The translations under genes were made by a program, and so were the position numbers. The notes under the pieces are model-generated. The model did no database searches. It saw only the letters and a program-made list of their open reading frames with translations, and had not been told where the DNA came from. This document shows positions 1 through 48,865 of a stretch of DNA of 64,000 nucleotides, piece by piece (the stretch's first letter is position 1; every line of letters starts with the position of its first letter). Source of the DNA: Mytilus trossulus (taxonomy: Eukaryota); contig NC_086380.1 in the NCBI RefSeq assembly GCF_036588685.1, positions 33,530,313 through 33,594,312 on the forward strand. Direction: 5' to 3'.

Positions 1-3000
1 TGGGGACAAAAAAGGGTCTTACCGGACCTATCTACTCCTTTCCCGATTTTCAATTTTTAAATTAAAAGAAATGCTGAAAAATACAATTTTCTAAATAAAT
101 TCATTAACATAAATACAGCGATTTCAAATAGCTTTTTAGTAACAAAAATATCTAATATTAAATAATTTACCCATTTTCTTGATTACCTATCAGGGGTTAT
201 TCCTCCCCAATTTGTAAGATAATTATTGACGAGAATCCCATTCAAGGCCGCTTGATTTCACGGAGTTGCCAATCTCTGTGTATATTATATGTCTCTAATT
301 TAATAGACTTGTTTTGTCAGTACAAGTAGATGCATCTGAGTTTGCAATTGGCTATGTCCTTTGACAAATATATCCAAACACTAAACTTGAACTTCAGGGT
401 TCGATCACTGGATGAAAATTAACAGAAATGGCACATACATTACACGGAGGGTTATTACCAAAGAACGGTGTCAAACATTTTTATCCAAGTTTTCCCAACA
501 GTAAAAGTCTATGTTTTTACAGACAATATAACAGTTCGCTGAATAGAGACAATAAAACATACCAGAGACACTAAGTTATATCCACATGATTTTTACGAAT
601 ACAATTTTGAGATGAACGATATACCTTAGCAAGAAAAACAAAGCAGATGCCAAATAAAGAAGAGAACATAGATAGAAAAGCTCATTATGATGTCCACAAA
701 CTGAAGTTTAAGTAACAGTTGTAACTCTGAAGGACAACAAGTATGAGTTCATAACATTTTATTATGTGGGAGTTAATAAAAATAAATTAAACAGCCTTGC
801 AATAAAATAATTAAAGATCACGACACTCTTAATTATATTGACCCTGAGGAATTTAAAAGACGCAAAAATATTCCATAACCTTAAAAGACATTGCTCAGAT
901 TATGTAAAAATTTGAAATCACAAATTAGATGGTACCTAAGGACAGACAAAATGAAAGACAACCTGATGCCAAATCATCAATTCAAGATCAAGGATCCTAC
1001 CAAAATGAGATTATATTATGGCCAAACAGCTGGCAATAACAAGGGTCATACCACAAGAAGTATAGGAATTTTGTTGGTTGTCACCAAGCAGAAGAAACGA
1101 CCTATGCAGATGTACAACAGAGATATAACTGGCCAAATATGTATCAACATACCAAAACATACATTAATACTTGTGCAATCTAGCGAAAGTTTCACTTGTT
1201 TACAAATGACATTTGACATTTAAAGACAATTACCCCATAGAATTATTTATATCAGGTTTACCCAAGAGTATAGATAACATAAATTGACTGATACACAATA
1301 AAGCCATGTGCTAGGTGGATACATTTAAATTGTCAACTGAGTCTTTTTGAAAATTTTTACTTGCCTACTAGGTCCACTTTGAGTAAAATATAACATTTGT
1401 ATTGAAAATTGTTTTTTTCAACTGTTTAAAGTAACAGGTGAAGGTTACATTATGTTTTCTGGAAATTAATCTGCATTCTACTAATTTAAACTACTTGCAA
1501 AATATATTATTTATTATAACATACATTATCTTATAATAATTACAAAAAGCATGCAAGTAAAATACAACACAATATCTTATCTTAACAACAAATAATTGAT
1601 GCTATTTAATCAAAGCGCTTGTGTGCACTAAGGAAAGCAGTTTACTATCTCTTTTTGGTTTTAAACTTATTAAAGTTTATTATGATTTACACTGTATTCA
1701 TCCTTTATTAAGGCAATGTTTTGAAAAGAGTTATCTTCCTATGACATTGCAGGTAAAATAGGTATACCATGTAATACTTTTTACAACTTTAAGGATAATT
1801 TTAATATAATGGATTTTTAAACTAGTACAGTAATACATACACATGACATTTATTTAACTTGAAATACTGAGCGTACATTATTACTGAATTGCTTGACATG
1901 GTCATGGATAAGGAGTGACTAAAGGATGTTCACCTCATTGCACTATTTCGAATAAATTAGGAAAGAAACAGTTAAAAATCTCTATTTAGACAGTGATTGT
2001 ACTAAGTCACTAACTCTGCACAAAATCATCAAACCGGAACAAAATTTGAACTGCATCTGTAACTTGTTATGATAAAAAATATACCAAATATTAAATCAAT
2101 ATCTTCAAACATGAAGAAAGATAAGTGTGAAAAACTGATTTGTCAGACTGGCGGATGGACAGACAGAGGGACCAAGTGCAAACCTAAAGCCAACTTTGAC
2201 TTCATCGGTAAGGGAATAAAAAGTAATATAATGCAAATTCATGCTTAGGGTAATACAATATAACTAAAGAAAGTAACCTCACTAATATAAAGATTTAAAA
2301 AAAGCAATAAAATATCAGCAACAACCACTGCATCATTAACAACAGACTTGTAAAACATAGTCTTGATTGTAGTAGCATATGAGATAGAAAGTAATAATTT
2401 CTCAAAAAGTAAATGGTGGCAAGCAATGATAAAAACAGTATGTGTAAAAACAAACTATCACATTTTTTAAGTATGCCAAAATATGAAACAATTCAGAAGT
2501 GAAAATAAAAATATTAACATATAATTCATTGGGAACAACCTCTTATAAATACAACACTACTGCTAAAAACCTAAAATTCAAAAATGTTAAAGAATGTTAA
2601 CCTTTCTAAAAGGCAAAAATTTGTAAGAAATAGAGTTCATTAGAACAAAACATAAACCAACCATTGTCATCAATGGTAAGTTTAAAAATCTAAATGTCAT
2701 GAAACATTTTACAGCATAAAACTAAGAGTTAAAACAGATCTAGAATAGCAAAAACTGCTAAAGGTCAACTAAGAGGGATTTGCAACTTAGTGATAACTCA
2801 AGGCAGTAATCATATGGCAAAAATAACAGATATTATGTTTACAAAATTAGATCAATATACATTAAGGAGGTAACTGCTGACAAAAACAGGTCCGGAGAAA
2901 TGTTTACATTTTCAAAACAATAGTTCAAACATAATCATCTAAAATTTTCAAATCATTTATACTTTGTCAATTGAATGATTTAATTATTCATACTTTTTAA

Positions 3001-3881
3001 AAAGCTATGTTTAAGTCAACTTCACAGCAATTAGTTTTTTGCAATTTTTCTAAACTTTCTGAAATATATCTTTATAAGGGGTTACACATTCAATACAATT
3101 TATAATTATATAGCATTAAATTTCTTGAAAAATGTCAAAAACAAATTAGCTTATCAAATAAGTTCACAGAATACTATAACTGCATCCAATTAATTAAATT
3201 ACTTAAATACTAGTCTTGCCAATAGAGGCCTTTTTAACTGTATTAGATGTATGAATATGTATTGCACCTTTATTTAAAAAATGAGCATAGGCTTTAACTT
3301 TTACTGAGGGATTTCTGTTTTACATTTCAGGATTTAGAAAATGTGGGCTGAGTAAGAGGTATTTAAGTTTGACTGTGCAAAAGGTAAGAAAGTTTTATTA
3401 AGTTGCAGGCAGCAAATCACAGTTAGTTGATAACAGCATATGAAAGTTAATGGTGGGAGGTGATTGACAAGTTGTATGAATTTCTTTAATTTATACGAAA
3501 AGGAAATTTATACTAAATTATTTGCAACCCAAAGCAGTCGGTTGAATAGTCTGATTAATTGAAAAACAAGACAAAATATATGGGAGGAAGAATATGTGTG
3601 CCATTATATGCCAGGCCACACAGTAGAAGCCTATAACCAAATGCAGGTGGAAATCTTTGCAAGACCTAGGAATATACCTTAATTCATCCAAGGTCTAAAT
3701 GCAACCCTGATTATCATAATGAGGTACAACTGTATCGGTTCATATACCATTTTATAGTTATATACTTAATCTATAATTGAACTGTTTAGCTAATTTCCAA
3801 TATAAGACAGATAATATGGATATCAGGACTCAAACAGTCACACTGTCTATTAATATTTTGTATATGTGAACTTCATGGCAG

Positions 3882-3984: not shown

Positions 3985-4665
3985 CTGTAAATATTAAATA
4001 TTATATGTCAAATTTTTAGAAAAAAATATGCATGAATTTTATAAGCAATCAGACAAAAAAATCAAATTCAAAAACTTCAAAAATATTAAATGCAAAATTC
4101 GTCAAAGATCCTGATTCTAGTCTAACAACAATAATGTAATGTGTTAATAAAAATGTCATTTCTTTACAGTAAAAGTAACAATTATTTAAAGCAAAAGCAA
4201 AGCAAATGTTTTTACTGTAAACAAATAAGTGCAGAAAGTTTCAAATAAAACAATTCATGAAGAGGGTTGGAGCCTTCAAACATGATTGAGTTGCAACCTT
4301 CTTTATGTGCTAATCCCAATCCCAAGTCAGGAGCCTGTAGTTCATTGGTTTTCATTGGTTCATGTCTGTCATATTTGATTTTTTGTAAATTGTTTTAAAT
4401 TAATTAAGCTGTTAGTTTCCTCAATTGAATAATTGTTTCTTATGTTTCATGTTGGGGCAATTTTAGTTTTATAGCACACTATAAAGTATGGATTGTTTTA
4501 TTGCTCATTATTGAAAGCAGTCAATTTGCCTACTTTTGCTTGCATCCACTTCATTTAAACTTTGGTTGATAGATGCCTCATTGGTAATCACAATGGATTT
4601 CCATATTTCTGCCCCCCCCCCCAAAAAAAAAAAAATATCAATACAACAACATTACCTATTGACTA

Positions 4666-4731
4666 GTCTAGCAATTAGGACCTTTTCTTCATTTTGTGCA
4701 AAGGCTTGGCCAATACAATTTCTAAAATAAA
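4666..4731 (-). CDS. gene A exon 11 (R-NCIGQAFAQNEEKVLIARLVN-R)
   Basis: Acceptor ATTTTAG and donor GTAATG. 66 nt as in gene B. Completes FSAGPRNCIG with the heme-ligand Cys. Confidence 0.85.
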
Positions 4732-4974
4732 AAATATTCACATTGACTTATTTTTTACAGTGTGGAAAATTGAATAGAGTCAAAAGCTGCATTATTGATG
4801 TTTTCTCCTTACTAATAAATACTGTAGCAGTTCAGAAATTTAGTAAATTAAATGCTTATTGTCTCTTTCAAACTGCTGACATTCATAACTATCTTCATTC
4901 TTCTCCATGAAAGGAAAACAATTATAAAAATCCTTTTCAAGGACCTTTATCTTCTGTATTTACCCACTAATTTA

Positions 4975-5750
4975 TGGTGGATAATTTGTATTTACCATGG
5001 TCTAACTGAAAATGGAGTAAATCTATTAGGATCCTCTGCATTATAGGGGAGATAATTTATGTTCATTTCATTCAATTAGAAAGTGGAGTAAAACTATAAG
5101 GATCCTCTGCATTATAGGGGAGATAATTTATGTTCATCTCATTCAAGCAGAAAGTGGAGTAAAACTATAAGGATCCTCTGCATTATAGGGGAGATAATTT
5201 ATGTTCATCTCATTTAAGCAGAAAGTGGAGTAAAACTATAAGGATCCTCTGCATTATAGGGGAGATAATTTATGTTCATTTCATTCAAGCAGAAAGTGGA
5301 GTAAAACTATAAGGATCCTATGCATTATAGGGGAGATAATTTATGTTCATCTCATTCAAGCAGAAAGTGGAGTAAAACTATAAGGATCCTCTGCATTATA
5401 GGGGAGATAATTTATGTTCATCTCATTCAAGCAGAAAGTGGAGTAAAACTATAAGGATCCTCTGCATTATAGGGGAGATAATTTATGTTCATCTCATTCA
5501 AGCAGAAAGTGGAGTAAAACTATAAGGATCCTCTGCATTATAGGGGAGATAATTTATGTTCATCTCATTCAAGCAGAAAGTGGAGTAAAACTATAAGGAT
5601 CCTCTGCATTATAGGGGAGATAATTTATGTTCATCTCAATCAAGCAGAAAGTGAAAAAAAAACTATACAGATCCTCTGCATTATAGGGGAGATAATTCAT
5701 GTTCATCTCAATCAAGCAGAAAACGGAGTAAAACTATAAGGATCCTCCCC
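4975..5750 (-). repeat. 71-bp tandem array, about 11 copies, in gene A intron 10, derived from the exon 10/intron 10 junction
   Basis: Plus-strand monomer GGGGAGATAATTTATGTTCATCTCATTCAAGCAGAAAGTGGAGTAAAACTATAAGGATCCTCTGCATTATA. It aligns to 6001-6070, which is intron start GGGGAGATAATTCATATTTAC plus the exon 10 3' end. On the minus strand it reads DPYSFTP(L)SA…. Confidence 0.8.
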
Positions 5751-6022
5751 AAGAGGTTTGTTTCAATTAGTCTTCCACCATTATTAGAGATGATTCATAG
5801 TCACAGTGGTCAGGCAGAAAATTCATTAAAGTTTTAAGGATCTACTGAGAAAGTTTCTATTGAAACTTTCTACAGGAAAGGGGAGATAACTCAAATCTAA
5901 ATTTGTCAAGGAGAAAATAGAGTACAACTATAAGAAACTTCGAAGGAAGTCTGTATCAATTAAATCTTTTTTGTCTCTAGTTAATTTTGTTTTACATTTC
6001 AGGGGAGATAATTCATATTTAC

Positions 6023-6105
6023 CTTGGTCCAGCTGAAAAGGGAGTAAAACTGTAGGGATCCATATCATGATGTTTGTCTCCCTCAAATCTCTCTGGTTTA
6101 AATTC
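6023..6105 (-). CDS. gene A exon 10 (EFKPERFEGDKHHDMDPYSFTPFSAGP-R)
   Basis: Acceptor TTTCAG and donor GTAAAT. 83 nt as in gene B. PERF motif and start of heme-binding loop. The ORF-track stop after GPR is the GTAA of the donor. Confidence 0.85.
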
Positions 6106-8222: not shown

Positions 8223-9537
8223 CTATATGCCATAGAAAGAGATACATTATCATTATGATCATCATTTCATGAGTGTAAAAATCAGATGTTAGCAAATAGA
8301 TGGAGCTATTCAAAAATATCCATCAAGAGCTGAGCACATAGATGAATAATGGAAGAATCTGACTTAATAGATTTAAAACTGTAGATATTATTCATTAATC
8401 TGATTCTGTTTCATCAACTTCTTTTTAACTTTATAAACAGTATTAACATACAATATCTTTCTCAAAATAACTTGAAACTACTAAAAAAAGGTTAACATTA
8501 CATAAGTTCATTGAATTTTGATACATAGATAAAATGCATACAACAGCGGTTTAAAATTAATCTTAAATCAAAAAGGTTATAGACTTTTGGGACTAACAAG
8601 TCAAAGTTCAGGCTGTGAAAAACAACGGTTAGAACTCAGGTTTTTAAAATAACTATTTTCAGGGGTCATTTATATTTACGGACGCCATCACGAGTTGGTT
8701 GACCGTTATGGAATTACCGTTTCACAAATGATATCGGATATGTTCCTTACGTCGTAACTACAATCCCCTTCCCTTTCATGAATGTGACCTACTGAATTAA
8801 GACTATTTACCGGATTTGATATCACATAAGCAACCCGACGGGTGCCATATGTGGAGCAGGATCTGCTTACCCTTACGGAGCACCTGAGATCACCCCTAGT
8901 TTTTGGTGGGGTTCATGTTGTTTATTCTTTGGTTTTCTATGTTGTGTCATGTGTACTATTGTTTTTTTTTTTTTTTTCATTTCTAGCCATGGCGTTGTCA
9001 GTTTGTTTTAGATTTATGAGTTTGACTGTCCCTTTGGTATCTTTCGTCCCTCTTTTAGGATCAGGACTCTTGATTTCTTTACATTTAAGTTTGTAGATTT
9101 AGGACATGCAGAATTCAGAACATCTGATACACAATTGGAATATATTGATTAACATATAAAATGCTGGATATTCAATCAAGTATATGTATAGCTTGCTGTT
9201 CCATGTGAGCCAAGGCTCTGTTTTGAAAACCATACTTTGACCTATAATGCTTTACTTTTACAAATTGCAAATTGGATTGAGAGTTGTCTTATTGACACTC
9301 ATACCACATCTTCTTATATCTATATATTTACATTAGATGTATGTTTCCTTATAATACTTTATTCTGATTGGCTAATTGCACATCACATGTTATTCCTTCT
9401 GCCATTGCATCACTCGATAAAACTTATCATCCGTGATAGCATGGGGTCCCACAATAAAGTGTACAGTTGAATTAAATAAAACAATATATAAAATTCGTTT
9501 TTTCATGACCATAGCTAAAATAAATGTAATTATAAGT

Positions 9538-9685
9538 ATTGAATGCTTCTTTTTGGAACTTCATAGGGTTGTAAAAGCTTGATCGTGCACCCATTTTTAG
9601 AATGAAGCGCTTCCACGCTTTGAACAAAATGTACTTCGGTCAACGCTTTTACAACCCAATGAAGTTACAAAAAGAAGTATTCAGT
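9538..9685. repeat. ~45-bp inverted repeat arms with ~60-bp spacer (MITE-like hairpin) in gene A intron 7
   Basis: ATTGAATGCTTCTTTTTGGAACTTCATAGGGTTGTAAAAGC is the reverse complement of GCTTTTACAACCCAATGAAGTTACAAAAAGAAGTATTCAGT, with one or two mismatches. Confidence 0.7.
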
Positions 9686-9724
9686 TCTTAAATATAAGCT
9701 TTAATTATAAATATAATCCTTTAC

Positions 9725-9857
9725 CAGCAAACATAAATGTATCCACCTCAGATCTGATCTCTACATTAGTCAATCCTTTACCAGATTCATCTCTCGCTGT
9801 TAACAAAATATCCAGAAAATCCAACTGTCTTTTCTTCTTTGTTTTGGAGTCGTCCTT
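9725..9857 (-). CDS. gene A exon 7 ([45 protein letters not shown])
   Basis: Acceptor TTTTATAG and donor GTAAAG. 133 nt as in B and C. Conserved LDFLDIL…EVDTF[ML]FAGHDTT I-helix region. Confidence 0.85.
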
Positions 9858-10593
9858 CTATAAAAGTATCAAGTTATAATAATTTCAATTCTAATGGTGA
9901 AAAAATTTAAAAGAAAAAAAATGAAATACTATGAATGCAATTTTCATTTGAGGTATAAGCTTTGTATTTATAGCTTTTTGTTTGTATGTTTTCACATTGT
10001 TTAAGAAGAAAAAAACATGTCAAAATCTAGCTCAAGTGGTGTACCCACATTAGCTGCCACAAAAAAAGTATAAATAAAAATGCTGTGAGTATTTTCCAGT
10101 TTACAATGCAAAAATTTGATCTGCAGTAGATCTAAAACCAGTTTATTTATGAATGACATATAATCATGTATTGTTCAATATATCATATACGTTGTATATC
10201 AATTTAAGCATGATAATTCTAGAGATTTTCCAAACAGTAATTTTTTGGTGCCCTTTACAGCTTGCTGTTCAGTGTGAGCCAAGGCTCCGTGTTGAAGACC
10301 ATACTTTGACCTATAATGGTTTTCCTTTTAAAATTAGGGCTTGGATGGAAGGTTGTGTCATTGGCACTCATATCACATCTACTTATATCTAAGGCTGGAA
10401 TACATGATATGTTATGAATGTATGCAATCCTGAATATGCAATAAAGGTTTCAATGTATCATCTATTATATCTGATTTTCAACATCTTAAAATATATCTAA
10501 ATAAAAGATAAAATGATATTAATTCACACCAGAAAACTTAAATTAAATTACATTTCAGTGAAAAAGGTCAACAATAGACATAATGCATCATAC

Positions 10594-10717
10594 CAAATCA
10601 TCTTTTCTCTTCAAAATAATATCTTCTGAAAACTCATGAACATAATCACAGAGCTTGAAAAATTCTTTACCACTAGGTGACAGCTTGAATAGAAATTCTG
10701 GATACAAGTTAATGTTT
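10594..10717 (-). CDS. gene A exon 6 (L-NINLYPEFLFKLSPSGKEFFKLCDYVHEFSEDIILKRKDDL)
   Basis: Acceptor TTGTAG and donor GTATGA. Homologous to B/C exon 6 (…GKEFFK[IL]C[ED]YVHKFSKDIIS…KEL). One codon shorter than B and C. Confidence 0.8.
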
Positions 10718-11539
10718 CTACAAAGTAAAGGCATTGTCAGTCATATATACAAAGTCCAATGATTCAAATTAAATAGTAACAGACTGCATGATTCAGTATA
10801 GTATTGAGACCATTTGGCATCAATTCAAATGAGTAATTTCATTACATTAATAAACAATATCACTATTTTGGTGCATTTCTCCTTTGATCTTTTATGTGAT
10901 AAATTTTTATATCATTTATTTGCTTAAGATGGAAAATTATATGAGAGTGCAGCACAGAAGCATCCTCTCCTTTGAAACCTTTGATAACCTATAAATAAAG
11001 TAATGCTGTCAATAATTTTTTCACAATGTATTGTGCAATTATTTGTTTTTAGAAAGTTTAAAGTTATAAATTTTTGGGCACCACAAAGTAAATTTCCCCT
11101 TCTCACCCAAAAAATATGACTGACTTTTTCTAGTGTGGTAAATTATGGTTGTGATCTTTTAACTTTAACTTTTACTAGCAAAAATTAGTTTTATCTTCTT
11201 ATTGGGACTCAGCATACTAAATTTGTTGAAGAAAACTGATGAAGACTGGGCATCGATATACTTGTCTGTCTGGTGTTGACATCATTTTTATCTGGATCCT
11301 CAATTGCTTTTAATTTTAATACAATAATCAAAGTTGGTCATATTTTGTCTGTAAGGGTTCTCAAAAGCAGCAATTGTTTACACGAATCACATGCTACCCT
11401 TTTTATTACACCACAATGAAAGTTAGGTATGCCTCATTCCAGGCATAAATTATCTTCTTTTTTCAGATCAAACAAACTTCTCACTATAAATATTTTGTAC
11501 TTCAAACAAAAAAAGTTCAGAACAGTATTTATAACTTAC

Positions 11540-11602
11540 AGACATCTATGTAGTGTTAGTTCAATCATTCTTTTAACAGCTTTAACATATGGATGGCTTT
11601 CC
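11540..11602 (-). CDS. gene A exon 5 (G-ESHPYVKAVKRMIELTLHRC-L)
   Basis: Acceptor CTTTACAG and donor GTAAGT. 63 nt as in genes B and C. SHPYV motif shared with B (DSHPYVTAV) and C (EHHPYVIAV). Confidence 0.8.
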
Positions 11603-12304
11603 CTGTAAAGATAAAATGTATCTTTTTATAATTGTGCCCATTTAGCAATAATAGCAGCAGAAGTCTAACAACTTTTCTTAGAGACTGAACTATTGGTGTT
11701 TTTATGATTTGAAATTATGCACATCTTTCAAAATAGCTAGTAAATTTTAATATACATAAATCCATCTTAGTAAATGTATCAACAGATGAACTATTCAATT
11801 TAATAAATCTATTAGATGGGAAATTTGCCATGTGACATATTCAAAAAGTCAACTTTTAAAAATAAGCAATTAAAACATGTGACAATAAAATTGAGAATGG
11901 ACATGGGGAAAGTGTCAAAAAGACAACAAAAAAAAGAGCAGAAAACATTCAGCAGATATACATTTCTAGAAAGCATGCATTGGACTATTGTCAACTATTT
12001 TTTAATTATTTGGGAAAATATTTCAAAAAATCTGTTTTTAAAGGATTTACGTATGTAAAGTTGACAGCTTTGGATCCAATTTATTGTACTCTTCTTTACA
12101 GAATCATGTATTGTTCATGTTGTATGGAGGTAGGTTCAAACCAATTTTTCTAGGAATTAATTAAAATTTAAATTGATGGAATTATATAGTAAATAAGGAT
12201 ACATCTACATAAAGAAATGTAGTTGAAAAACTCAACATGGTTGCAATTTGGGTACCCTCACGTTAATCCTGAATGCCAATTGATGATTAGAAAATTTGAT
12301 ATAA

Positions 12305-14350
12305 TTTCTTACCCTACATCTTGTATATTTCCTTTGTATGACAGAGCACACTGTAACAAGATATCTAGATCTTACCCTACGTCTTGTATATTCCCTTTGT
12401 ATGACAGAGCACACTGTAACAAGATATCTAGATCTTACCTTACGTCTTGTATATTCCCTTTGTATGACAGAGCACACTGTAACAAGATATCTAGATCTTA
12501 CCCTACATCTTGTATATTCCCTTTGTATGACAGAGCACACTGTAACAAGATATCTAGATCTTACCCGACGTCTTGTATATTCCCTTTGTATGACAGAGCA
12601 CACTGAAACAAGATATCTAGATCTTACCCGACGTCTTGTATATTCCCTTTGTATGACAGAGCACACTGTAACAAGATATCTAGATCTTACCCTACGTCTT
12701 GTATATTCCCTTTGTATGACAGAGCACACTGTAACAAGATATCTAGATCTTACCCTACATCTTGTATATTCCCTTTGTATGACAGAGCACACTGTAACAA
12801 GATATCTAGATCTTACCCTACATCTTGTATATTCCCTTTGTATGACAGAGCACACTGTAACAAGATATCTAGATCTTACCCTACATCTTGTATATTCCCT
12901 TTGTATGACAGAGCACATTGTAACAAGATATCTAGATCTTACCCTACGTCTTGTATATTCCCTTTGTATGACAGAGCACACTGTAACAAGATATCTAGAT
13001 CTTACCCTACGTCTTGTATATTCCCTTTGTATGACAGAGCACACTGTAACAAGATATCTAGATCTTACCCTACATCTTGTATATTCCCTTTGTATGACAG
13101 AGCACACTGTAACAAGATATCTAGATCTTACCCTACGTCTTGTATATTTCCTTTGTATGACAGAGCACATTGTAACAAGATATCTAGATCTTACACTACG
13201 TCTTGTATATTCCCTTTGTATGACAGAGCACACTGTAACAAGATATCTAGATCTTACCCTACGTCTTGTATATTTCCTTTGTATGACAGAGCACACTGTA
13301 ACAAGATATCTAGATCTTACCCTACGTCTTGTATATTCCCTTTGTATGACAGAGCACATTGTAACAAGATATCTAGATCTTACCCTACGTCTTGTATATT
13401 CCCTTTGTATGACAGAGCACACTGTAACAAGATATCTAGATCTTACCCTACGTCTTGTATATTTCCTTTGTATGACAGAGCACATTGTAACAAGATATCT
13501 AGATCTTACCCTACGTCTTGTATATTCCCTTTGTATGACAGAGCACACTGTAACAAGATATCTAGATCTTACCCTACATCTTGTATATTCCCTTTGTATG
13601 ACAGAGCACACTGTAACAAGATATCTAGATCTTACCCTACATCTTGTATATTCCCTTTGTATGACAGAGCACACTGTAACAAGATATCTAGATCTTACCC
13701 TACGTCTTGTATATTCCCTTTGTATGACAGAGCACATTGTAACAAGATATCTAGATCTTACCCTACGTCTTGTATATTCCCTTTGTATGACAGAGCACAC
13801 TGTAACAAGATATCTAGATCTTACCCTACGTCTTGTATATTCCCTTTGTATGACAGAGCACATTGTAACAAGATATCTAGATCTTACCCTACATCTTGTA
13901 TATTCCCTTTGTATGACAGAGCACATTGTAACAAGATATCTAGATCTTACCCTACGTCTTGTATATTCCCTTTGTATGACAGAGCACACTGTAACAAGAT
14001 ATCTAGATCTTACCCTACGTCTTGTATATTTCCTTTGTATGACAGAGCACACTGTAACAAGATATCTAGATCTTACCCTACATCTTGTATATTCCCTTTG
14101 TATGACAGAGCACACTGTAACAAGATATCTAGATCTTACCCTACGTCTTGTATATTCCCTTTGTATGACAGAGCACACTGTAACAAGATATCTAGATCTT
14201 ACCCTACCTCTTGTATATTCCCTTTGTATGACAGAGCACACTGTAACAAGATATCTAGATCTTACCCTACGTCTTGTATATTCCCTTTGTATGACAGAGC
14301 ACACTGTAACAAGATATCTAGATCTTACCCTACATCTTGTATATTCCCTT
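12305..14350 (-). repeat. 63-bp satellite, block 1, about 33 copies, in gene A intron 4; monomer is the exon 4 3' end plus the intron 4 5' splice site
   Basis: Head-to-tail repeats with period 63. Minus-strand monomer ATCTTGTTACAGTGTGCTCTGTCATACAAAGGGAATATACAAGA[CT]GTAGG|GTAAGATCTAGAT. Copies differ by a few point substitutions (C/T, G/T). Confidence 0.9.
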
Positions 14351-14764
14351 TTTATACTGCAATCAGCTAGTTTACTGTACAGATAAAGCTATACGTATAA
14401 ACGTAAGCTTTATACGTCAATGACCCCAACTGACCTATAAGCCCCGCCTCCTTATTGTATTTCATCAACAACATCACGTCACGACCATGACAACGTAAAG
14501 TAACAATGGTCAAACTTTTTTCAATTTAAACTTTTATGTCTTCAAATTGGTTATTTATATATCATGTTTATCAAATGTTATTAATTAAGTTCATTTTCCC
14601 TTTCTAATTCCTTAATACGCCAATGTCTTACCACCTGGACTACGCTCATAGGGAAATACCCCAAAATGGTACCTCTAGAGGGAAATTCCAAACACTTTTT
14701 TTAACAATTTTTGTTACATGTTTTTTTCATTTTTCATTTTTTTTTTCGATTTCAGTATAAAAAC

Positions 14765-14895
14765 AATATACGTATAGTGTCTTGAAATATGAAATTTATT
14801 TGTATTCGGCAAGAAACGAGAAAATGCTCGGTAGAACCTCGCATTTTCCCATTTCTAAGCCTCATACAAATAAATTTCATATTTCAAGACACTAT
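14765..14895. repeat. Perfect 41-bp inverted repeat with a 49-bp spacer, lying between the two satellite blocks
   Basis: AATATACGTATAGTGTCTTGAAATATGAAATTTATTTGTAT (14765-14805) is the exact reverse complement of 14855-14895. The spacer holds a smaller palindrome GAAAATGC…GCATTTTC. Confidence 0.85.
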
Positions 14896-14897
14896 AC

Positions 14898-16515
14898 GTA
14901 TATTGTCTAAGTATGACAGAGCACACTGTAACAAGATATCTAGATCTTTATACCCTACGTCTTGTATATTCCCTTTGTATGACAGAGCACACTGTAACAA
15001 GATATCTAGATCTTACCCTACATCTTGTATGTTCCCTTTGTATGACAGAGCACATTGCAACAAGATATCTAGATCTTACCCTACATCTTGTATATTCCCT
15101 TTGTATGACAGAGCACACTGTAACAAGATATCTAGATCTTACCCTACGTCTTGTATATTCCCTTTGTATGACAGAGCACATTGTAACAAGATATCTAGAT
15201 CTTACCCTACGTCTTGTATATTTCCTTTGTATGACAGAGCACATTGTAACAAGATATCTAGATCTTACCCTACATCTTGTATATTCCCTTTGTATGACAG
15301 AGCACACTGTAACAAGATATCTAGATCTTACCCTACGTCTTGTATATTTCCTTTGTATGACAGAGCACATTGTAACAAGATATCTAGATCTTACCCTACG
15401 TCTTGTATATTCCCTTTGTATGACAGAGCACATTGTAACAAGATATCTAGATCTTACCCTACGTCTTGTATATTCCCTTTGTATGACAGAGCACACTGTA
15501 ACAAGATATCTAGATCTTACCCTACGTCTTGTATATTTCCTTTGTATGACAGAGCACATTGTAACAAGATATCTAGATCTTACCCTACGTCTTGTATATT
15601 CCCTTTGTATGACAGAGCACATTGTAACAAGATATCTAGATCTTACCCGACGTCTTGTATATTCCCTTTGTATGACAGAGCACATTGTAACAAGATATCT
15701 AGATCTTACCCTACGTCTTGTATATTCCCTTTGTATGACAGAGCACACTGTAACAAGATATCTAGATCTTACCCTACATCTTGTATATTCCCTTTGTATG
15801 ACAGAGCACACTGTAACAAGATATCTAGATCTTACCCTACATCTTGTATATTCCCTTTGTATGACAGAGCACACTGTAACAAGATATCTAGATCTTACCC
15901 TACGTCTTGTATATTTCCTTTGTATGACAGAGCACATTGTAACAAGATATCTAGATCTTACCCTACGTCTTGTATATTCCCTTTGTATGACAGAGCACAC
16001 TGTAACAAGATATCTAGATCTTACCCTACGTCTTGTATATTTCCTTTGTATGACAGAGCACACTGTAACAAGATATCTAGATCTTACCCTACATCTTGTA
16101 TATTCCCTTTGTATGACAGAGCACATTGTAACAAGATATCTAGATCTTACCCTACGTCTTGTATATTCCCTTTGTATGACAGAGCACACTGTAACAAGAT
16201 ATCTAGATCTTACCCTACGTCTTGTATATTCCCTTTGTATGACAGAGCACACTGTAACAAGATATCTAGATCTTACCCTACGTCTTGTATATTCCCTTTG
16301 TATGACAGAGCACACTGTAACAAGATATCTAGATCTTACCCTACATCTTGTATATTCCCTTTGTATGACAGAGCACACTGTAACAAGATATCTAGATCTT
16401 ACCCTACATCTTGGATATTTCCTTTGTATGACAGAGCACACTGTAACAAGATATCTAGATCTTACCCTACATCTTGTATATTCCCTTTGTATGACAGAGC
16501 ACACTGTAACAAGAT
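14898..16515 (-). repeat. 63-bp satellite, block 2, about 25 copies, abutting and overlapping gene A exon 4
   Basis: Same monomer as block 1. The last copy (16466-16515) is the genuine 3' end of exon 4, ending at the real AGG|GTAAGA donor. Confidence 0.9.
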
Positions 16516-16590
16516 TTCTAATGTAGCCAGTCCTGAATATTGAAACACTTCCACATATTTTCCATTCTTACTTTCCTCTGCAAACTTCTC
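16466..16590 (-). CDS. gene A exon 4 (EKFAEESKNGKYVEVFQYSGLATLEILLQCALSYKGNIQDVG); its last 50 nt are also the terminal monomer of the 63-bp satellite
   Basis: Acceptor TTTAACAG and donor AGG|GTAAGA. 125 nt as in genes B and C. Homologous to B (DKLASG...LLQCSLGYKGNVQLVG) and C (DKLAFM...LLQCALGYKGDVQQVG). Confidence 0.8.
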
Positions 16591-16935
16591 CTGTTAAAGA
16601 AAATAGAATATTAGACCTTATATATTTGATTATTTTACCTTTTGAGATTTTTAGAGATAAGTACGTATGTACATATTATAGTTTTCAAAAATAAATATTT
16701 TCATGATATAAAACCCTAGTCTCCTCTTTAGATCATAAGTTGAAATTGGGGCAGATGTGTTTTATACTGAGAAAATGTGTGTTCAAAAGTCAAGATCAAA
16801 TATTTGTCATGTTCATTTGCTGCCCTAGCTAAAGAAAGTAAACTTTTCAGCCATCAGATTTAAAAACTTAAATCAATGTTTTTTGATGTTGACTTACAAA
16901 TTTAACATAATAAGGTTATATAAAATATTACTTAC

Positions 16936-17063
16936 TAATAATGTATCTGTCACATCATTGTATATTTTGAAGTACCCATTTAAAATGGAGAAATGAAACG
17001 CTGGTGTTAACAATCTTCTGTTTCTTTCCCACTTTGGTCCATCTGCAACCAGTAAACTTTCAC
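16936..17063 (-). CDS. gene A exon 3 ([43 protein letters not shown])
   Basis: Acceptor CACAG and donor GTAAGT. 128 nt as in genes B and C. Conserved WxxxRxxxxPAFH motif. Confidence 0.85.
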
Positions 17064-17704
17064 CTGTGCATAAATATAAGGATACCATATTTTCTAATTT
17101 TCAAGTTTTGGTTACGGTAGATTATTGGCAAATTATGTAAAATTTTGTATCAAAAGACATTCAAATGAGTGATGTTCATTTTATGTTTGAAAATTTAACA
17201 GATTAGCAGAGATATCATGTAGCCTTTGTAATAGTTAAATCTTTTTCTACTATTTTTTTTAAAGAATTGCTTATATATCATGCATTAAATGCAGACATTT
17301 TATAGGGATTGACAGTTTATTAATGTGATCAGGTATGCCTTTTTTTCAACTGAATTTATCGATCCATGACACAGTGTAGGTGAACTTTATTTTGTGAACC
17401 TTGTCTAGCTATTATTGCAAATGCAATAATGGTACTGCAGATTGATTCATTATTATTCGTTGGATACCAATTTTTGTCAGTTTCATGGGTACAGGTGAAC
17501 CACAATATTCAAATGTTCAACATATTACAAATTTTCTAGACTTTGGGTATGCAGAGATTGGCAAATACCATGAAATCAAATATCCACGAAAATGTAAGTT
17601 TTCCTCAATACACAAAAATTGATAACAATGAAAATAAATGACTCCATAGTATACACATACACAAATTATCTGCCCCTTGTATGGACTTATTTGCCTAAAC
17701 TTAC

Positions 17705-17906
17705 CTATCCATGGTAACATAAAGGAGATTCCTGCCCCTTTTCTAGACTTTGGTGCAGTTGACTTCATAACGACCTTTATAGTGTCTGGATGGGTCAAGG
17801 TCAGTAAAGGTCGTACAACAAATAACCAGTAGACGAAAGCTTTACATCTTTTTTCTTCCACATATTCCTTAAACATCTTTTTGAAAAATCCATCAAAGGA
17901 TTCAAT
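17705..17906 (-). CDS. gene A exon 2 (IESFDGFFKKMFKEYVEEKRCKAFVYWLFVVRPLLTLTHPDTIKVVMKSTAPKSRKGAGISFMLPWI-G)
   Basis: Acceptor TTGTAG and donor GTAAGT on minus strand. 202 nt, same length as gene C exon 2. Ends in phase 1. Confidence 0.8.
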
Positions 17907-19254
17907 CTACAAAATTGAGTGTCAGCGTGGTGTGATAAGCTGGATGACATATATAGGGTGATCATTTTCAAGATCTGGGATTTTTTATTGTTATTTTTAT
18001 GTAATTATGCTTTTTTCCTTCTTTTTCCCAGATGCCACCTTTGTCCCCTCTACAAATGTATATCCCACATCCCTACATTTTTACCCTTATATTCCCACAA
18101 ACTAAAAGTCTGTCATCCCCCTTTCTGTGATAGTTTGAAAGACAATAACAATCAAAACCAAAGAGTAAGCAAAGACTCACAAAACCAAAGGACATTTACA
18201 TCAACAGTTATAAATAATAATTAAGAAACAACACGAATTCCACTAAAAACCGGGAAAAATATAGATAATGTCCAGGGGCAACTATCACATATCTACACCC
18301 ATTCCAGGAGAATAGGTCTATCAGGCATTAAAAAAAGACAATTATAGAAATTTGGAATTTATTACCTTTTTCTCATTTCATCAACACAGGTACCAGCAAA
18401 AAATGTTATAATATCTTTGATAGTTTTTGTTAAATTTCTTTTTTCTTTTTTTGGACTTTGGGACAATAATTTTATTTTACATATTTTTGTTGTTGAAGAC
18501 TGTATGTTAATTTCTATATATCTTTATTACAGCTATCTGTGTTTTTGGGTAGTTGTCTTATTGATATATATACTACCATATTTCATTTTATTCATCATGA
18601 TCATATAAATGACTCAATATTGATTCTATTTGTTGACTTTTTTTGGTCGAACTGTGCATTTCAAATATGATGTCTTTTATTTTTGTACCATTGGATTGCC
18701 GTCTCATTGGTATCATATATATCCCACACCTTTTAAATGTTTAACCCTGCCACATTATTTATGTCCCTGTCTTTTGAATAATTTGACATTTTGTTTTTCC
18801 TGGTGCCTTTAAATTTATAGCTTATCAAAGATATGGAATTCCTCATTGTTACAGACTGTACATGACATATTATTAGTTATCTTGGTGTAATCAGGGGTGT
18901 ACAGAATTTTACACTGTTGTTGAAAATTCATACACCCTGAGGCGCAAATTTATTCATTTTTTTATTTTTTATTTATTTTTTTTTTATTTATTTTTTTTTG
19001 GCAAAATTTTATTTATCCCGAGGTGAACAAGGGTGTGGTGTTATTTACACCCGGGTAATTAACCAATCAGATTGCAGTATTTTTTGCTGCATAAGACAAA
19101 AAGTTGTTTACATCCTTGTCTGATTAATTTTCATTGAATAATTGTATGCTTGGCAATCATGTCCTATCTCCAAATTTTCAGACTTGTATATTTAAATTCT
19201 TTAAATTGGAATAAATTATTGTATAAAGTTAATATATTTTTTAAGTCTAAATAC

Positions 19255-19419
19255 CTGGAGTGCATTTCCAAACAACCAATGTGTTTTAGGTCCTGGAAAA
19301 TGAGACAGAGTCCTGACCATATTACCATGCCATTGTAAGAACTTGATGAGGTTTATAATGATAACTGTGAGGATCAAAACACCTACACCAATCCCTATTG
19401 ACATCAAAACAGCTACCAT
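19255..19419 (-). CDS. gene A exon 1 (MVAVLMSIGIGVGVLILTVIIINLIKFLQWHGNMVRTLSHFPGPKTHWLFGNALQ)
   Basis: ATG at 19419 (minus). Hydrophobic N-terminal membrane anchor then PGP hinge. Donor GTATTT immediately 3' (revcomp of 19249-19254). Phase 0. Confidence 0.8.
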
Positions 19420-19914
19420 GGTAACACTGGTTATTTACTGTATATACCGAGCATCTGAAATTTGACAGTATAAAATTATCTCTATTTTCAATGTTACTAA
19501 GAACACACCCGCGAAATCGCAGGCATATACAGCTTGTGGACTGTTGTAGGATGATTTTTTGTAAAAGATTGTATGTATGGGAAATTTCATAAAAAGTATG
19601 AAAAGCCTTCTCCCTAGTTAAAAAGTCCGATATTTGTTTCCTTTCTGTTAAATTCAAATATTTTCGTGTGTCTGGCCTCAGACCACAATTATTCTTCTCC
19701 TTTGGTACAATGCTGCTTTTGGTAAAAGTCAAATAAAATTAACAATTTGCACCGTTTCAAACATGAAAAAAATATAACTGCTTATATATAGATCATTATT
19801 AGTCTAATAAAATATGCTTCTATGACAATCCGTCAGTCTTTTTTTTTCTTTTGAGAGCCTTATTAAGATGTCAATTGTAGGATATGACTCATGTATAAAT
19901 GACTAAGGCTAATT

Positions 19915-22295
19915 TGAAGGGTGGCCGGAGGGGTCCTGATCCCGAAATCCCGCGATTAAAACCATGAATCCAGAGATGCAGAATTAAAAGAAATGCATAT
20001 CCCGAAATCACGAAATCGAAAAATATATTCCAGGATCCAGTAAGGATCAATCCCCAAATCCCGAGCTTAAAAACACACGATCCCGACGCTCCGAAAAATG
20101 CTCGCCTACTTTTAATCTCTACCTTACTTTCATTTTTGCTAAATCACTATTTTCCCTTTCAACAATAAATTTGTATGCCCCATTTATGGGCATTATGTTT
20201 TCAGGTTAGTCTGTCCGTTCGTTCGCTCGTTCGTCTGTCCGTGTCTGTCCCGCTTCAGATTAAAGTTATTGGTCGAGGTAGTTTTAGATGAAGTTAAGCA
20301 TGTTTTACTTATTTTAATATATATGCAATTGGTATGACCCCTGAAGTAGTAAAACAGTAGACAGAATCAGGCCCGACTTTCTTTACTAACACAGAAAGTC
20401 CCATAGAGAATTAGATAGTCTCTATGTATCAAAGTAGTATAATCGTAGTTTACATGTAGATAAACGCGAAAAATTATTAATTGTCCTCTCTAAGGAGGTA
20501 TAATAGTTGTGATTCGTGCGATCTAAACATCATGATATGGAGAACGCTTTGAATGGCTTATTTTTTTTTCTCCATTTTTGTTATCCATCATACGATTGGT
20601 TGTACTTGTGTCAAATATTTTACTTATTTTAATATATTATATATACAACTGGTATGACCCCTTAATAGTAAACATTTCAAAGAAAACAGTAGACAGAATA
20701 CAGAGAGTCTCCATATATTAAAGTATAATAATCGTAGTTTACATATAGATAAACACGAAAAATAATTATTGTCCTCTATAAGGAGGTATGATAGTTGTGG
20801 TTCATGCGATCTAAACCCCATGCTATGGAGAACGCTCTAATTGGCTTATTTATTTTTCATATTTAGTTATCTATCATACGATTGGTTGTATTTGCGCATC
20901 TTTCAAACCGGAAATTTAATCTATGACTAAAAGTTAGTCCGATGACGGAATCATATCCGGACTCCTTTTTTCTCTTTTTTCTCCCAAAATAACTCAATCT
21001 GAATAATCATAAGAATGGATGACAAATGGGACTATGCATGTTACCTATAGGACACAGAGACATGATGATTGATTTATTGTGGAAGGAAGAGAAGCGACAC
21101 CCAAAATGAGGTCTTCTCGTTTAATAGTATAGATATCATACAAGTTTTTGCATTGACATTATTTCATCATCTGATCCAGGGAGATAAGATGAGGCAGAGG
21201 TACTGCGATCTAGCTATGCACTTCCAACCACTGCAGACATGACAGAATTATGTGCCTTCTGGATTTCAAAAGCCTGTAGTCCACTGAATGGTTGTCTTTG
21301 GTAGCTTTCTGCAATAATGAATCTCTGTTCATCATGTTCATGTTGTTTAATGTTATATTAGCTTAAAGTTAAACCATGCTGTTTCCTGAATTTGTTATCC
21401 AGCATCTTTTTAAATATTGGTTTTGCTCATTTTTGAAGGATGAAATTGGTATGCATGACTTATTACAGTAGAAGTTAGCAATCATCCTTGAACTTATAGA
21501 TCTCCAGGTGGTGGATTATAAGTTGTCTCATCAGCATTACCTCATTTTTTATATCTTAATGATCAGTTTTAAACATGAGGGTGAATGACAAACTTCAAAA
21601 ACATAAAAGACTCCTGGCAATGGTCCATTCTCTTCAAAGGCATCATATGCACATGTACATGCATGGATGTATGTACTGGTAGATTAATACAACCTATCAC
21701 CAATGACAATACACGAACAAACATCAAAGGACTGTTAGAACGTTTGGCTAGCTTTTTGACAGTGGCTATCCTAGTCCAATTTGGTGTAGGTATTATTACA
21801 CAAACATACCCAGGAAAATGACACAATATATTACAGAAGAAAGTCTACATTATAAATTATATTACTTTGACTTATTAGGTGAGGCCAGACCAGCATATCC
21901 ATGGAGTCTTTAAATATACGCTTCTCATTGGTTTTTGTACGACTACCAGTACTAACAATGCATTGTGATGTCACAATTTCCATTAAAAAAGCATTCATAG
22001 TACAAATTCATATGACGTACGAAAACATATGATCTGACCATACTTATTAGCCTGAATACGGTTACCAGATATAGTATGACATATAATTGGGGGGGGGGGG
22101 GGGGGGGGGGGGGGCCTTTATCGGGACTCCGGGATCGGGTGTTTTTTTAAGCTCTGGATTTCAGAATTGATCCTTTCGGGATCTGGGAATTCTTTTTTCG
22201 AATTTCGGGATGTCAGGATTTAAATTTCTTTAAATACGGGACCTCAGGATTTCATGTTTTTAAGCCTGGGATTTCTGGATCAGGACCCCTCCAAC
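19915..22295. mobile_element. ~2.4-kb element with ~190-bp diverged terminal inverted repeats and a G26 run at the inner edge of the right TIR; 0.5 kb upstream of the gene A ATG
   Basis: Left TIR 19915-20106 and right TIR 22085-22292 are about 75% identical as reverse complements (GGAGGGGTCCTGATCC…ATCCCGAAAT…). Interior holds a 300-bp tandem duplication (20285-20590 / 20590-20885) and fragments of other repeat families. Confidence 0.6.
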
Positions 22296-22547
22296 CCCCC
22301 TTATAATTTCCAAATGTATAAAAGCCACATTTTTTTTATATATATATAGAATGGTTTGTATTGAGAACAATCACACATATGTGATTAAATGTTATGGTTA
22401 CGCTTTGAACCACTGCTTTGAACATGTTGAAATTATATCTGTTTATTATCTGTCTGATAGTGTTCTACATGAGGAGCGTAATGGGGTTACCCTCATGACA
22501 AATAACAGTAAAAATTCTAGCCCAATGACATTAACGATAATTTTTGG

Positions 22548-22770
22548 TGCATGACGATAAAATGTACACTTTCTTATCTATAGACGATAAAAAAATCGAC
22601 TGATTTTGACGAATCACATTAATTTTTTCCCAAAAATAAAGGTAACAATAATTATTTGAGACCTCTGACGAATCACAATAAGGATATTTTGACGACTCAC
22701 GGTAAAATTTTAACCAATTTGACGTTATTAACGGTAGCCTAAAATTACCGTTTGACGCCTGACGGTATAG
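22548..22770 (+). promoter_or_regulatory. Cluster of at least 9 TGACG (CRE/bZIP half-site-like) motifs in 220 bp, just outside the right TIR of the 19915-22295 element
   Basis: TGACGATAAAA, AGACGATAAAA, TTGACGAATCACA (x2), TTGACGACTCACGG, TTGACGTTATTAACGG, TTGACGCCTGACGG. A degenerate ~20-bp periodic motif. Confidence 0.35.
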
Positions 22771-41157: not shown

Positions 41158-41375
41158 TGTAAATTCAGAAATTATTGCGTGCATTTATTTTTACAATTTT
41201 GTCATTTGAATAGACTTATAAATTATAAATGGGATTTTAATTTTTGTGATATTGAGAAAAATCCTGTTTAATTCATATAAAAAATTTCAAAATGGGAGTT
41301 TAAATTATTGCGATTATAACCCTGTCGCATTTTTTGCAATAATAAAAACATCGCAAAAATTTCTAAATTTACACT
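41158..41375 (+). mobile_element. ~210-bp MITE with ~24-bp perfect TIRs (ACTGTAAATTCAGAAATTATTGCG … CGCAATAATTTCTGAATTTACAGT); one of 4 copies
   Basis: Other copies are 46471-46670 (+, gene B intron 10), 52138-52343 (inverted, intergenic) and 62948-63155 (+, gene C intron 7). Copies are 85-90% identical. Confidence 0.75.
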
Positions 41376-44930: not shown

Positions 44931-45399
44931 TTAAGAACTGATTTTCATAAGGAAAATAAGGCCTTGTTCACCTTGCTATAACCCTACAAAACTATCAAAA
45001 AGAAGCATGTAATACTTATAATAACAGCATAACAGCTAAACCCCTTGCCCCCCCTCTTATATTTCAATTCTAAAAGCATGAAAGGAGGAGTTTAATAAAC
45101 TTTGGTTAGTTTAAAGAAAAATATTACTGGCATACTATACACATTGATGTCATGTTGTCAAGGGAAGCGCCTATTCTAACAAATGCTGCATTGTATCAGT
45201 ACATAAAAAAATCACTTTTAAGTCAGAATGATGCAATCTATATAAAACGTCTTTGTCATTATTAAATTTAAACCAATCACTTCTACAGTCACAAGTATCA
45301 AATTGTAAAAGTTAATTACGATCCGGTTTTCATTTTAAAATTAGGAAGTTGAATTTTTACTACGCTCAAAAATTATATTTGTTATTTGTCACTGTATAG

Positions 45400-46232: not shown

Positions 46233-46315
46233 GAATTTAAACCAGAGAGATTTGAGGGAGACAAACATCATCAGATGGATCCATATAGTTTTACTCCATT
46301 TTCTGCTGGACCAAG
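46233..46315 (+). CDS. gene B exon 10 (EFKPERFEGDKHHQMDPYSFTPFSAGP-R)
   Basis: Acceptor TTTTCAG and donor AAG|GTAAAT. 83 nt. Confidence 0.85.
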
Positions 46316-47208
46316 GTAAATATGAATTATCTCCCTTTTATAGCAAATGGATTTAAAGGAGACAAGCATTATCATATAGATACTTCTGCTGGGCCAAGGT
46401 AAATATGTAATATCTTCTCTTTGCTGCAGAGATATTTGATGGCAACAAACATCATGAGATGGATCATTATACTGTAAATTCAGAAATTATTGTGTGCATT
46501 TATTATTGCGATTTTGTCATTTAGACTAAATAGCGATTTTAAATTTTGAAAATAATCCTGTTTAATTCATATAAAAAATTTCAAAGTGCGAGTTAAAATT
46601 ATTGGGATTATAACCCACTCGCATTTTTCACAATAATAAAAACCTCGCAATAATTTCTGAATTTACAGTAGTTTAACTTCATGTTCTCCTTAACCAAGTT
46701 AAATAAGAATTATCTCCCCTATAATGCAGATAGTTGATCACCATGAACAGATTCATAGTTCTCCATTTTTTTGGAACCAATTATCTCCCTTATAATGCAG
46801 GGAGATGAAGATCATTAGAAAACCCTAAGTTTTACTGGCTTTTCTACTGGAATATATTAAAGATGGATTACCTCCAATATGAAATAGAGAGAAGAACATC
46901 ATGGGACAGATCTTTAGTTTTACTCCATTTTCTGTGAGACAGAGATAAATATAATGTTCTTCCTTATAAAATAGTGGACAAGCATCTCTACAAATTACTC
47001 ACTTTTCTTCTGAAATGAGAGTATCAAAGCTGATTCACAGTAATTTTAGAACTGGCTTGCTCTCATTAGAACATATATTAAATGTACATCAAGGCAACAT
47101 AAGCTAGTGTCACTGAAACTTTTTTTTAGAAAGAAAGACATTTTAAGAAATTTCATTGTATCTGTATATAATATTAGTTTCATTATATTAGATGGATTTA
47201 TGTTACAG

Positions 47209-47274
47209 AAATTGTATTGGATTAAACTTTGCACAGAATGAGGAGAAAGTGTTGATAGCAAGAATTGTAGAAAG
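47209..47274 (+). CDS. gene B exon 11 (R-NCIGLNFAQNEEKVLIARIVE-R)
   Basis: Acceptor TGTTACAG and donor GTATGG. Completes heme loop FSAGPRNCIG. Confidence 0.85.

Positions 47275-48835: not shown

Positions 48836-48865
<30 letters not shown>

Follow-up and report, generated by a model that had tools for sequence, protein, structure and literature searches.

Why should an intron of a cytochrome P450 gene carry repeated copies of the end of the exon that precedes it? The question is raised by a stretch of 64,000 nucleotides (nt) from Mytilus trossulus (RefSeq assembly GCF_036588685.1, contig NC_086380.1, forward-strand positions 33,530,313 to 33,594,312; hereafter the window), which contains three CYP4-family genes: A on the minus strand, B on the plus strand, and C on the plus strand and cut by the window end. 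Intron 10 of gene A holds a tandem array of a 71-bp unit that an earlier reading of the letters (the original prediction) took to be a copy of the exon 10/intron 10 boundary. We conclude, with a probability of roughly 0.85, that the gene's own donor junction between exon 10 and intron 10 gave rise in place, and in two stages, to this intronic minisatellite, which most likely has no function. Gene A was modeled by hand as 12 GT-AG exons encoding a 503-amino-acid open reading frame (ORF), and its product has the same sequence as XP_063396178.1, "cytochrome P450 4B1-like [Mytilus trossulus]", so the gene is intact. A human CYP4V2 sequence was used as a tblastn probe for locating exons only, and no conclusion rests on it. 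The relevant parts of the gene are the following.

6023..6105, minus strand: coding exon 10 of gene A (83 nt, EFKPERFEGDKHHDMDPYSFTPFSAGP-R; GT-AG model), source of the exon part of the repeat unit
4722..6022, minus strand: intron 10 of gene A (1301 nt; donor gtaaat, acceptor ttttag), which holds all repeat units
4656..4721, minus strand: coding exon 11 of gene A (NCIGQAFAQNEEKVLIARLVN-R; gene model)

The predicted 71-bp array of about 11 copies was recovered by Tandem Repeats Finder (TRF) at 5008-5747, inside intron 10 (period 71, 10.4 copies, 95% matches, no indels), and a 71-nt register divides it into 11 units that run on the minus strand from 5747 down to 4975. Percentages give the match to the 71-mer consensus.

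5747-5677, minus strand: unit 1, 94%
5675-5605, minus strand: unit 2, 77%, with a 1-nt deletion and a poly-T/A patch
5604-5534, 5533-5463, 5462-5392, and 5391-5321, minus strand: units 3-6, each 100%
5320-5250, minus strand: unit 7, 97%
5249-5179, minus strand: unit 8, 99%
5178-5108, minus strand: unit 9, 100%
5107-5037, minus strand: unit 10, 96%
5036-4975, minus strand: unit 11, the terminal unit (T below), 69%

Five units equal the consensus exactly; the central units are identical and the edge units more diverged, as expected for unequal exchange. The monomer of the original prediction was then slid ungapped along both strands of the window (∼128,000 positions). Background positions scored a mean of 19.6 matches of 71 (standard deviation 3.75) with a maximum of 35, the array units scored 61-71 (47 in the unit with the 1-nt deletion), and the exon 10/intron 10 junctions of gene A (6002) and gene B (46266) scored 52/71 and 53/71, respectively. 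Lower peaks were present in both introns (in gene A, 45/71 at 5880 and 42/71 at 5784; in gene B, 38-46/71). The proposal that the monomer copies this junction is therefore upheld, and its resemblance to the junction is far better than that at random loci of the window. The minus-strand translation of most homogeneous copies is (E)DPYSFTPLSA*, three units having small variants, in agreement with the peptide DPYSFTP.SA noted earlier. The reported change of the donor from GTAAAT to ATGAAC likewise holds for every homogeneous copy: the donor position of all ten 71-mers is GAG/ATGAAC or GAA/ATGAAC (a slash marks the position of the junction), with no GT, and only unit T keeps a donor, ATG/GTAAAT.

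The anatomy of the unit became clear from gene A orthologues of M. californianus (locus L002), M. galloprovincialis (L003 and L007), M. edulis (L005), and M. coruscus (L006), in which intron 10 measures 3490, 763-775, 1438, and 2428 nt, respectively. In M. californianus, where the old duplication is easiest to recognize, TRF identified a repeat of 101 bp in 3.9 copies, the first of which begins at exon 10 nt 13, and its consensus, GAGAGATTT...GGACCAAG/GTAAACATAATTATCTCCCTTATAATGCA, consists of the last 71 nt of exon 10 and the first 30 nt of the intron. A search with this 101-nt consensus as the nhmmer query yielded the following units in gene A (E, expectation value).

5995..6093, minus strand: U0, the authentic junction and template unit, spanning exon 10 from nt 13 onward and intron nt 1-28 (model 1-97, E 4e-15)
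5876..5968, minus strand: U1, decayed old unit of ∼100 nt, donor lost (model 3-94, E 0.01)
5786..5859, minus strand: U2, decayed old unit (model 12-90, E 0.036)
5676..5770, minus strand: U3, full-length old unit (model 8-100, E 4e-11)
5037..5675, minus strand: nine 71-bp units, in the M. trossulus sequence only (TRF; model 30-100 each, E down to 7e-8)
4975..5036, minus strand: T, truncated terminal unit that reads DPNRFTPFSVR (model 30-90)

Because each 71-mer matches model positions 30-100, it is the 101-bp unit minus its first ∼30 nt, and it comprises 41 exon-derived and 30 intron-derived nt. The original prediction had given ∼50 nt of exon and 21 nt of intron, a split that arose because an ungapped alignment was forced; the unit alignment pairs the monomer's TATAATGCAG end with intron positions +22 to +31 of the ancestral unit instead of with the exon. 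The founding unit, taken earlier to be 71 bp, was ∼101 bp on the basis of the M. californianus consensus and the nhmmer matches. The 3' 71 nt of U3 (5747-5677) are the first, founding unit of the 71-bp register; U3 reads EDPYSFTPFSA*, and its donor has changed to GAGATGAAC. Orthologues of U3 were located in M. galloprovincialis (L007 15066-15155) and M. edulis (L005 11662-11752), as were those of T (L007 15155-15217 and L005 11756-11814). In these two species, U3 is followed directly by T with no units between them, so the copy number is one unit plus T as against ten plus T in M. trossulus, and the surplus of the M. trossulus intron over that of M. galloprovincialis in collinear BLAST blocks is 640 nt, or 9.0 × 71. 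The alignment shows that the donor-position change GAGATGAACA is common to U3 of M. trossulus, U3 of M. galloprovincialis, and all of the 71-mers, and thus the donor was already dead in the unit that was amplified later.

We picture the history of the array as two stages. In the first and old stage, relics of which are found in gene A of all five Mytilus species, a segment of ∼101 bp from exon 10 nt 13 to intron +30 (71 nt of exon and 30 nt of intron) would have been tandemly duplicated to ∼4-5 copies; the first copy is the real exon end, and the later copies, being intronic, would have decayed neutrally. One downstream unit would have lost its first ∼30 nt to give T, a truncation that would leave two adjacent units (the 3' part of U3 and T) in a 71-bp register. 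In the second and young stage, slippage or unequal crossing-over in that register would have added nine near-identical units (640 nt), copying the U3 type in which the donor had already changed from AAG/GTAAAT to GAG/ATGAAC. Ordinary DNA-level tandem duplication and, after it, slippage or unequal exchange is the simplest reading of these steps. The array is thus not an old one that was later re-homogenized in gene A but a new expansion of one sub-unit, seen only in the M. trossulus sequence; the older U1 and U2 stay decayed. M. galloprovincialis has its own secondary intron 10 duplication (125 bp × 2.4-2.5, 86-87% match), which starts within exon 10 (L003 13098-13409; L007 14652-14953); the intron 10 locus has thus been re-expanded independently in different species.

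The array is probably harmless, because no donor lies upstream of the authentic one and GT is missing from the amplified copies; splicing of exon 10 to exon 11 should therefore be undisturbed, and the exon 10-exon 11 model reproduces the RefSeq protein exactly. Several points weigh against this account of the locus. A single M. trossulus haplotype was seen, and "specific to M. trossulus" could mean specific to this allele. U3 of M. edulis keeps its donor and the loss is common to M. galloprovincialis and M. trossulus, a pattern that misfits the usual species tree unless lineage sorting, introgression, or a mis-assigned unit orthology is involved. The homology, the anatomy of the units, their distribution among species, the nine-unit surplus, and the intact ORF are observed directly, whereas slippage or unequal exchange, neutrality, and undisturbed splicing are inferences; for undisturbed splicing and lack of function, the grounds are limited to the intact ORF together with the RefSeq model. 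Each 71-mer also has a good tract resembling a 3' splice site (TTATCTCCCCTATAATGCAG/A) and T keeps a donor, so a cryptic exon of 40 nt is possible. Lastly, the enrichment of donor-junction arrays in Mytilus CYP4 genes, described below, hints at more than random slippage.

Units of this kind are also present in gene B, in which intron 10 spans 46316-47208 (the end given earlier, 46960, is corrected); exon 10 and the features of this intron are as follows.

46233..46315, plus strand: coding exon 10 of gene B, 93% nucleotide identity to gene A exon 10
46350-46428, plus strand: relic 1 (nhmmer E 0.021)
46430-46477, plus strand: relic 2 (nhmmer E 0.47; not significant alone, placed by its position in the register)
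46668-46729, plus strand: relic 3 (nhmmer E 0.015)
46776-46800, plus strand: relic 4 (nhmmer E 5.5; not significant alone, placed by its position in the register)
46889-46969, plus strand: relic 5 (nhmmer E 4e-6)
46470..46670, no strand assigned: miniature inverted-repeat transposable element (MITE) of 201 bp that splits the third gene B unit (32-nt terminal inverted repeats, 88% complementary)

The nhmmer matches and the inverted repeats agree with the original prediction that gene B retains decayed copies of the junction unit interrupted by a MITE, but its description of these copies as non-tandem does not hold: together they are what is left of a head-to-tail array of the ∼100-bp junction unit, not scattered copies. 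The B-like gene of M. galloprovincialis (L001) has two better-preserved units, at 11472-11573 (E 1e-10) and 11574-11678 (E 1e-9), and its intron does not contain the MITE, which belongs to a family of ∼200 bp with termini TACTGTAAATTCAGAAATTATTG... and with other copies in the window at 41158-41373, 52136-52343, and 62947-63156. That the amplification pre-dates the A/B duplication, as had been claimed, is not established by these relics. They may instead have been copied between the paralogues together with exon 10 by gene conversion, in which case they are no proof of a pre-duplication array, and to this possibility we give somewhat less than even odds. The nucleotide identity of exon 10 is 93% for A-B and 92% for A-C versus 70-85% for the other eleven exons, it exceeds that between gene A and its own M. 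californianus orthologue (89%), and A and B do not differ over the first ∼28 nt of intron 10; on these grounds, gene conversion of exon 10 and its flank among the clustered paralogues is a live alternative. Gene C (L009) and the M. edulis paralogue L008 have no significant relics, which also fits such copying. On the other side, exon 10 encodes a conserved region just before the haem-binding cysteine and part of the similarity may reflect constraint, the heavy decay of the gene B units implies age, and these units are too short for a reliable phylogeny. As an observation in its own right, the 92-93% identity of exon 10 among A (6023-6105), B (46233-46315), and C (L009 10834-10917) suggests either gene conversion or unusual constraint.

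Intron 10 is not the only site in gene A at which an exon junction has been amplified, and the second, independent exon-junction satellite named in the original prediction was found as described.

12307..16520, minus strand: 63-bp satellite in intron 4 of gene A, 67 copies of the last ∼57 nt of exon 4 plus GTAAGA, reading LDILLQCALSYKGNIQDVG* (TRF, tblastn)

The first unit of this satellite is the authentic end of exon 4 (16466-16590, minus strand), and the donor GTAAGA is kept in its units. Matches to exon 4 numbered 56 in the window as against one in each of the gene A orthologues of the other four species, and among the gene A orthologues (M. trossulus, M. galloprovincialis, M. edulis, M. 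californianus, and M. coruscus) the satellite is present only in M. trossulus. Its units keep the ancestral LDILLQ, and M. trossulus exon 4 now reads LEILLQ. In the orthologues, which represent the pre-duplication sequence, the intron continues with AATTAT after GTAAGA, leaving a microhomology of at most ∼3 nt and no GT.

Arrays of this kind are already known from human genes, and the 71-bp array is a further case of the class. Human minisatellites in which the first monomer lies across an exon-intron boundary occur in F7, CBS, IFI6, LMNB2, and PDGF (PMC1557585), in sizes that include 37 bp × 5-9 in intervening sequence (IVS) 7 of F7, 100 bp × 10-15 in LMNB2, and 81 bp × 16-18 in PDGF intron 4, with further sites in CBS IVS13 and IFI6 (6-16) intron 2 (PMC1557585). 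For the F7 IVS7 minisatellite, it was found experimentally that 5'-to-3' scanning selects the most upstream of several identical donors (PMC1557585). The exon 10 junction arrays resemble the F7 type in being intronic and head-to-tail, in having a unit made of the 3' end of an exon and the 5' start of an intron, in lying on the donor side, and in sitting in a functional gene; unit sizes are 37-100 bp in the human cases and 71-101 bp in Mytilus, copy numbers are similar, and, as in F7, the M. californianus 101-bp array and the 63-bp array of the window start with the authentic junction. The 71-bp array differs from F7 in three ways: it expanded secondarily from a unit that is internal and truncated, the exon and the homogeneous array are separated by ∼275 nt of decayed units (U1-U3), and its copies have lost the GT and therefore present no reiterated pseudo-donors, whereas the 63-bp array keeps GTAAGA. 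Taken alone, the 71-bp array is nothing out of the ordinary among intronic minisatellites and is probably neutral, and its value is that of a well-dated example in which five species show the steps of junction duplication, decay, truncation, and re-expansion of a donor-less unit. Donor-junction arrays can also mislead gene prediction and exon-homology searches, and those with strong donors pose the question of how mussel spliceosomes choose the right site.

Similar arrays were observed at several independent junctions in the few Mytilus CYP4 genes that we examined, and this recurrence is the broader lead. In the M. edulis paralogue L008 (OY782961.1, P0010), an array with a 75-bp unit, in which GTGAGTAG follows the final 67 nt of exon 2, is present in 2.2 copies at the exon (8935-9099) and then in ∼203 (9668-24901) and ∼53 copies (45182-49176) within a 40-kb intron 2, and the strong donor is kept in all sampled units. 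The same paralogue has, at 55998-57536, two exon 9-junction units of 139 bp (123 exon and 16 intron nt) followed by ∼18 of 73 bp (53 and 20), each of which reads LGIHSGHHHPDVWEDPW and keeps GTAGGT or GTAAGT. The M. californianus paralogue L004 (P0013) contains arrays of 156 bp × 3.2 and 52 bp × 6.6 at 2449-3382 that encode the end of exon 2 (...LPWLGE), and the final 123 nt of exon 2 are present once more at 2944-3066. A distant M. edulis CYP4F4-like gene on another chromosome (L010, OY782968.1) has a 58 bp × 2 duplication of the exon 4 junction at 2983-3097, the same junction as that of the 63-bp satellite, with the second donor mutated from GT to GA. L010 also carries an acceptor-side duplicate at 5686-5750, in which the intron 3' end is joined to the initial ∼50 nt of exon 8; the real exon 8 lies ∼112 bp farther downstream.

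A census of 242.5 kb of gene bodies gave 5-6 independent donor-junction events, ∼13 local non-exonic arrays, and ∼17 dispersed-family arrays, and the share of donor-junction arrays expected from target size is ∼4.3%. The binomial probability of the excess is ∼0.001 with local arrays as trials and ∼0.016-0.04 with every array as a trial, for a census that was post hoc, was confined to one gene family, used a crude division into local and dispersed classes, and included orthologous loci that are not independent; we therefore treat the excess as a lead and not as a result. The general claim to which it points is that in Mytilus genomes, or at least in this CYP4 family, 5' splice-site junctions nucleate and expand minisatellites at a rate well above that predicted from target size, nearly always on the donor side, with the 71-bp array as a donor-dead end state; we regard it as doubtful, if worth pursuing. 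Its products would be naturally occurring arrays in which intact pseudo-donors number from tens to hundreds, such as 67 × GTAAGA in intron 4 of gene A and more than 250 × GTGAGT in the M. edulis paralogue. If the claim is true, it would imply a junction-linked mutational or selective bias, and the arrays would let the rules by which a 5' splice site is chosen be studied in a natural setting outside mammals. Also unlikely, in our judgment, is a lineage- or family-specific process that preferentially nucleates tandem arrays at such junctions, with the 71-bp array as one of its products, whether through selection or through mutation, for instance when the template is switched at stalls associated with transcription or the spliceosome. 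The census excess and the recurrence at exon 4 (63 bp), exon 10 (101/71 bp), exons 2 and 9 of L008, exon 2 of L004, and exon 4 of L010 speak for such a process. The breakpoints, however, share no common motif (the exon part ranges over 41-123 nt and the intron part over 6-30 nt), the ancestral AATTAT after the 63-mer and its short microhomology fit ordinary slippage, one duplicate is on the acceptor side (a donor:acceptor ratio of 6:1, P = 0.06), and the human cases are sporadic too, where use of the most upstream donor offers a survivorship explanation of the donor bias (PMC1557585). The locus- or lineage-specific junction-duplicating mechanism of the original prediction thus stands in part: the recurrence is real and broader than was noted, but no special mechanism is required, given that boundary minisatellites are documented in several human genes, where use of the most upstream donor accounts for their being tolerated (PMC1557585).

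Could the array, or unit T within it, serve in splicing, as a poison or cryptic exon or as a decoy for splice sites or splicing factors that tunes CYP4 expression? We consider this quite unlikely. The candidate cryptic exon would use the acceptor TATAATGCAG/ and the T donor ATG/GTAAAT and would be 40 nt long and frameshifting. In M. trossulus, M. galloprovincialis, and M. edulis alike, T has retained a GTAAA donor, and U3 has lost its own in two of the three; the T units of M. trossulus and M. galloprovincialis match at all but 2 of 62 positions, and a pyrimidine-rich tract followed by CAG is present in every 71-mer. Against a function stand the neutral-looking decay of the older units (E 0.01-0.04), a 10-fold difference in copy number between sister species, the stop codons and missing donors of the repeated units, and the shortness of the 62 nt from which the conservation of T is judged. 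The minisatellite arisen in place and most likely without function remains the reading that we prefer.

It is very improbable that the monomer is a dispersed repeat or a transposon-borne bivalve satellite that resembles CYP4 exon 10 by chance or through capture of a gene fragment: many satellite-like arrays in bivalve genomes are transposon-associated (PMC7492417), and the window has dispersed-family arrays with periods of 126, 165, and 162 bp, but the junction match exceeds every background score, the orthologous introns document a stepwise derivation in place that starts inside the exon, no Rfam family matches the array, and, throughout the remaining window and ∼270 kb of ten other loci, matches to the unit are confined to intron 10 of CYP4 paralogues, so this origin is rejected within the data used. 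The arrays associated with bivalve Helentrons and MITEs (PMC7492417) are like the 71-bp array in being short, tandem, and intronic, with periods of tens to hundreds of bp, and the 71-bp array is unlike them in that it is not dispersed, has a unit homologous to a host exon junction, and has no obvious transposon ends; terminal structures were looked for by reading the array and its flanks, and the ends were not scanned for inverted repeats.

Three further candidates were rejected. Rolling-circle reverse transcription of a back-spliced RNA circle was considered because the units start after an AG-like motif and end soon after the donor, but the 63-mer is followed ancestrally by AATTAT and not by GT, and the units include intron nucleotides. 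Mutually exclusive or alternative copies of exon 10 are excluded by the partial exons, the 30-nt spacer, the stops, and the wrong length. The array does resemble tandem exon duplications and mutually exclusive exons (PMC9013439) in that exon-derived tandem copies lie in the flanking intron with a recognizable peptide (DPYSFTP.SA). It is unlike them in that the exon is copied in part (from nt 13 on in the 101-mer, which lacks exon nt 1-12, and as the last 41 nt in the 71-mer, which lacks nt 1-42), the 30-nt spacer is too short for an intron, the units are not a multiple of 3, and stops occur in every unit; nothing suggests alternative exon use. A ribozyme, structured RNA, or hammerhead retrozyme repeat was excluded by an Rfam gathering-threshold scan of the window that gave no match in 4975-6105.

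Other tandem arrays of the window are of different kinds. Arrays with periods of 165, 126, and 162 bp are located in gene B introns (33150-34432 and 37410-37874); they belong to dispersed families, of which L001, L002, L006, and L009 also have members, and are probably satellites carried by transposons. The window also has two uninterrupted runs of 26 G, one at 22089-22114, ∼2.7 kb upstream of gene A exon 1, and one at 55310-55335, which precedes gene C exon 1 by ∼1.4 kb. A 355-bp × 4 tandem array (24136-25560) is located between genes A and B, with related sequence in several other loci. The only Rfam match in the window, a type I hammerhead ribozyme on the plus strand (25124-25167, gathering threshold, 35 bits, E 5e-5), falls within this array and makes it look like a retrozyme.

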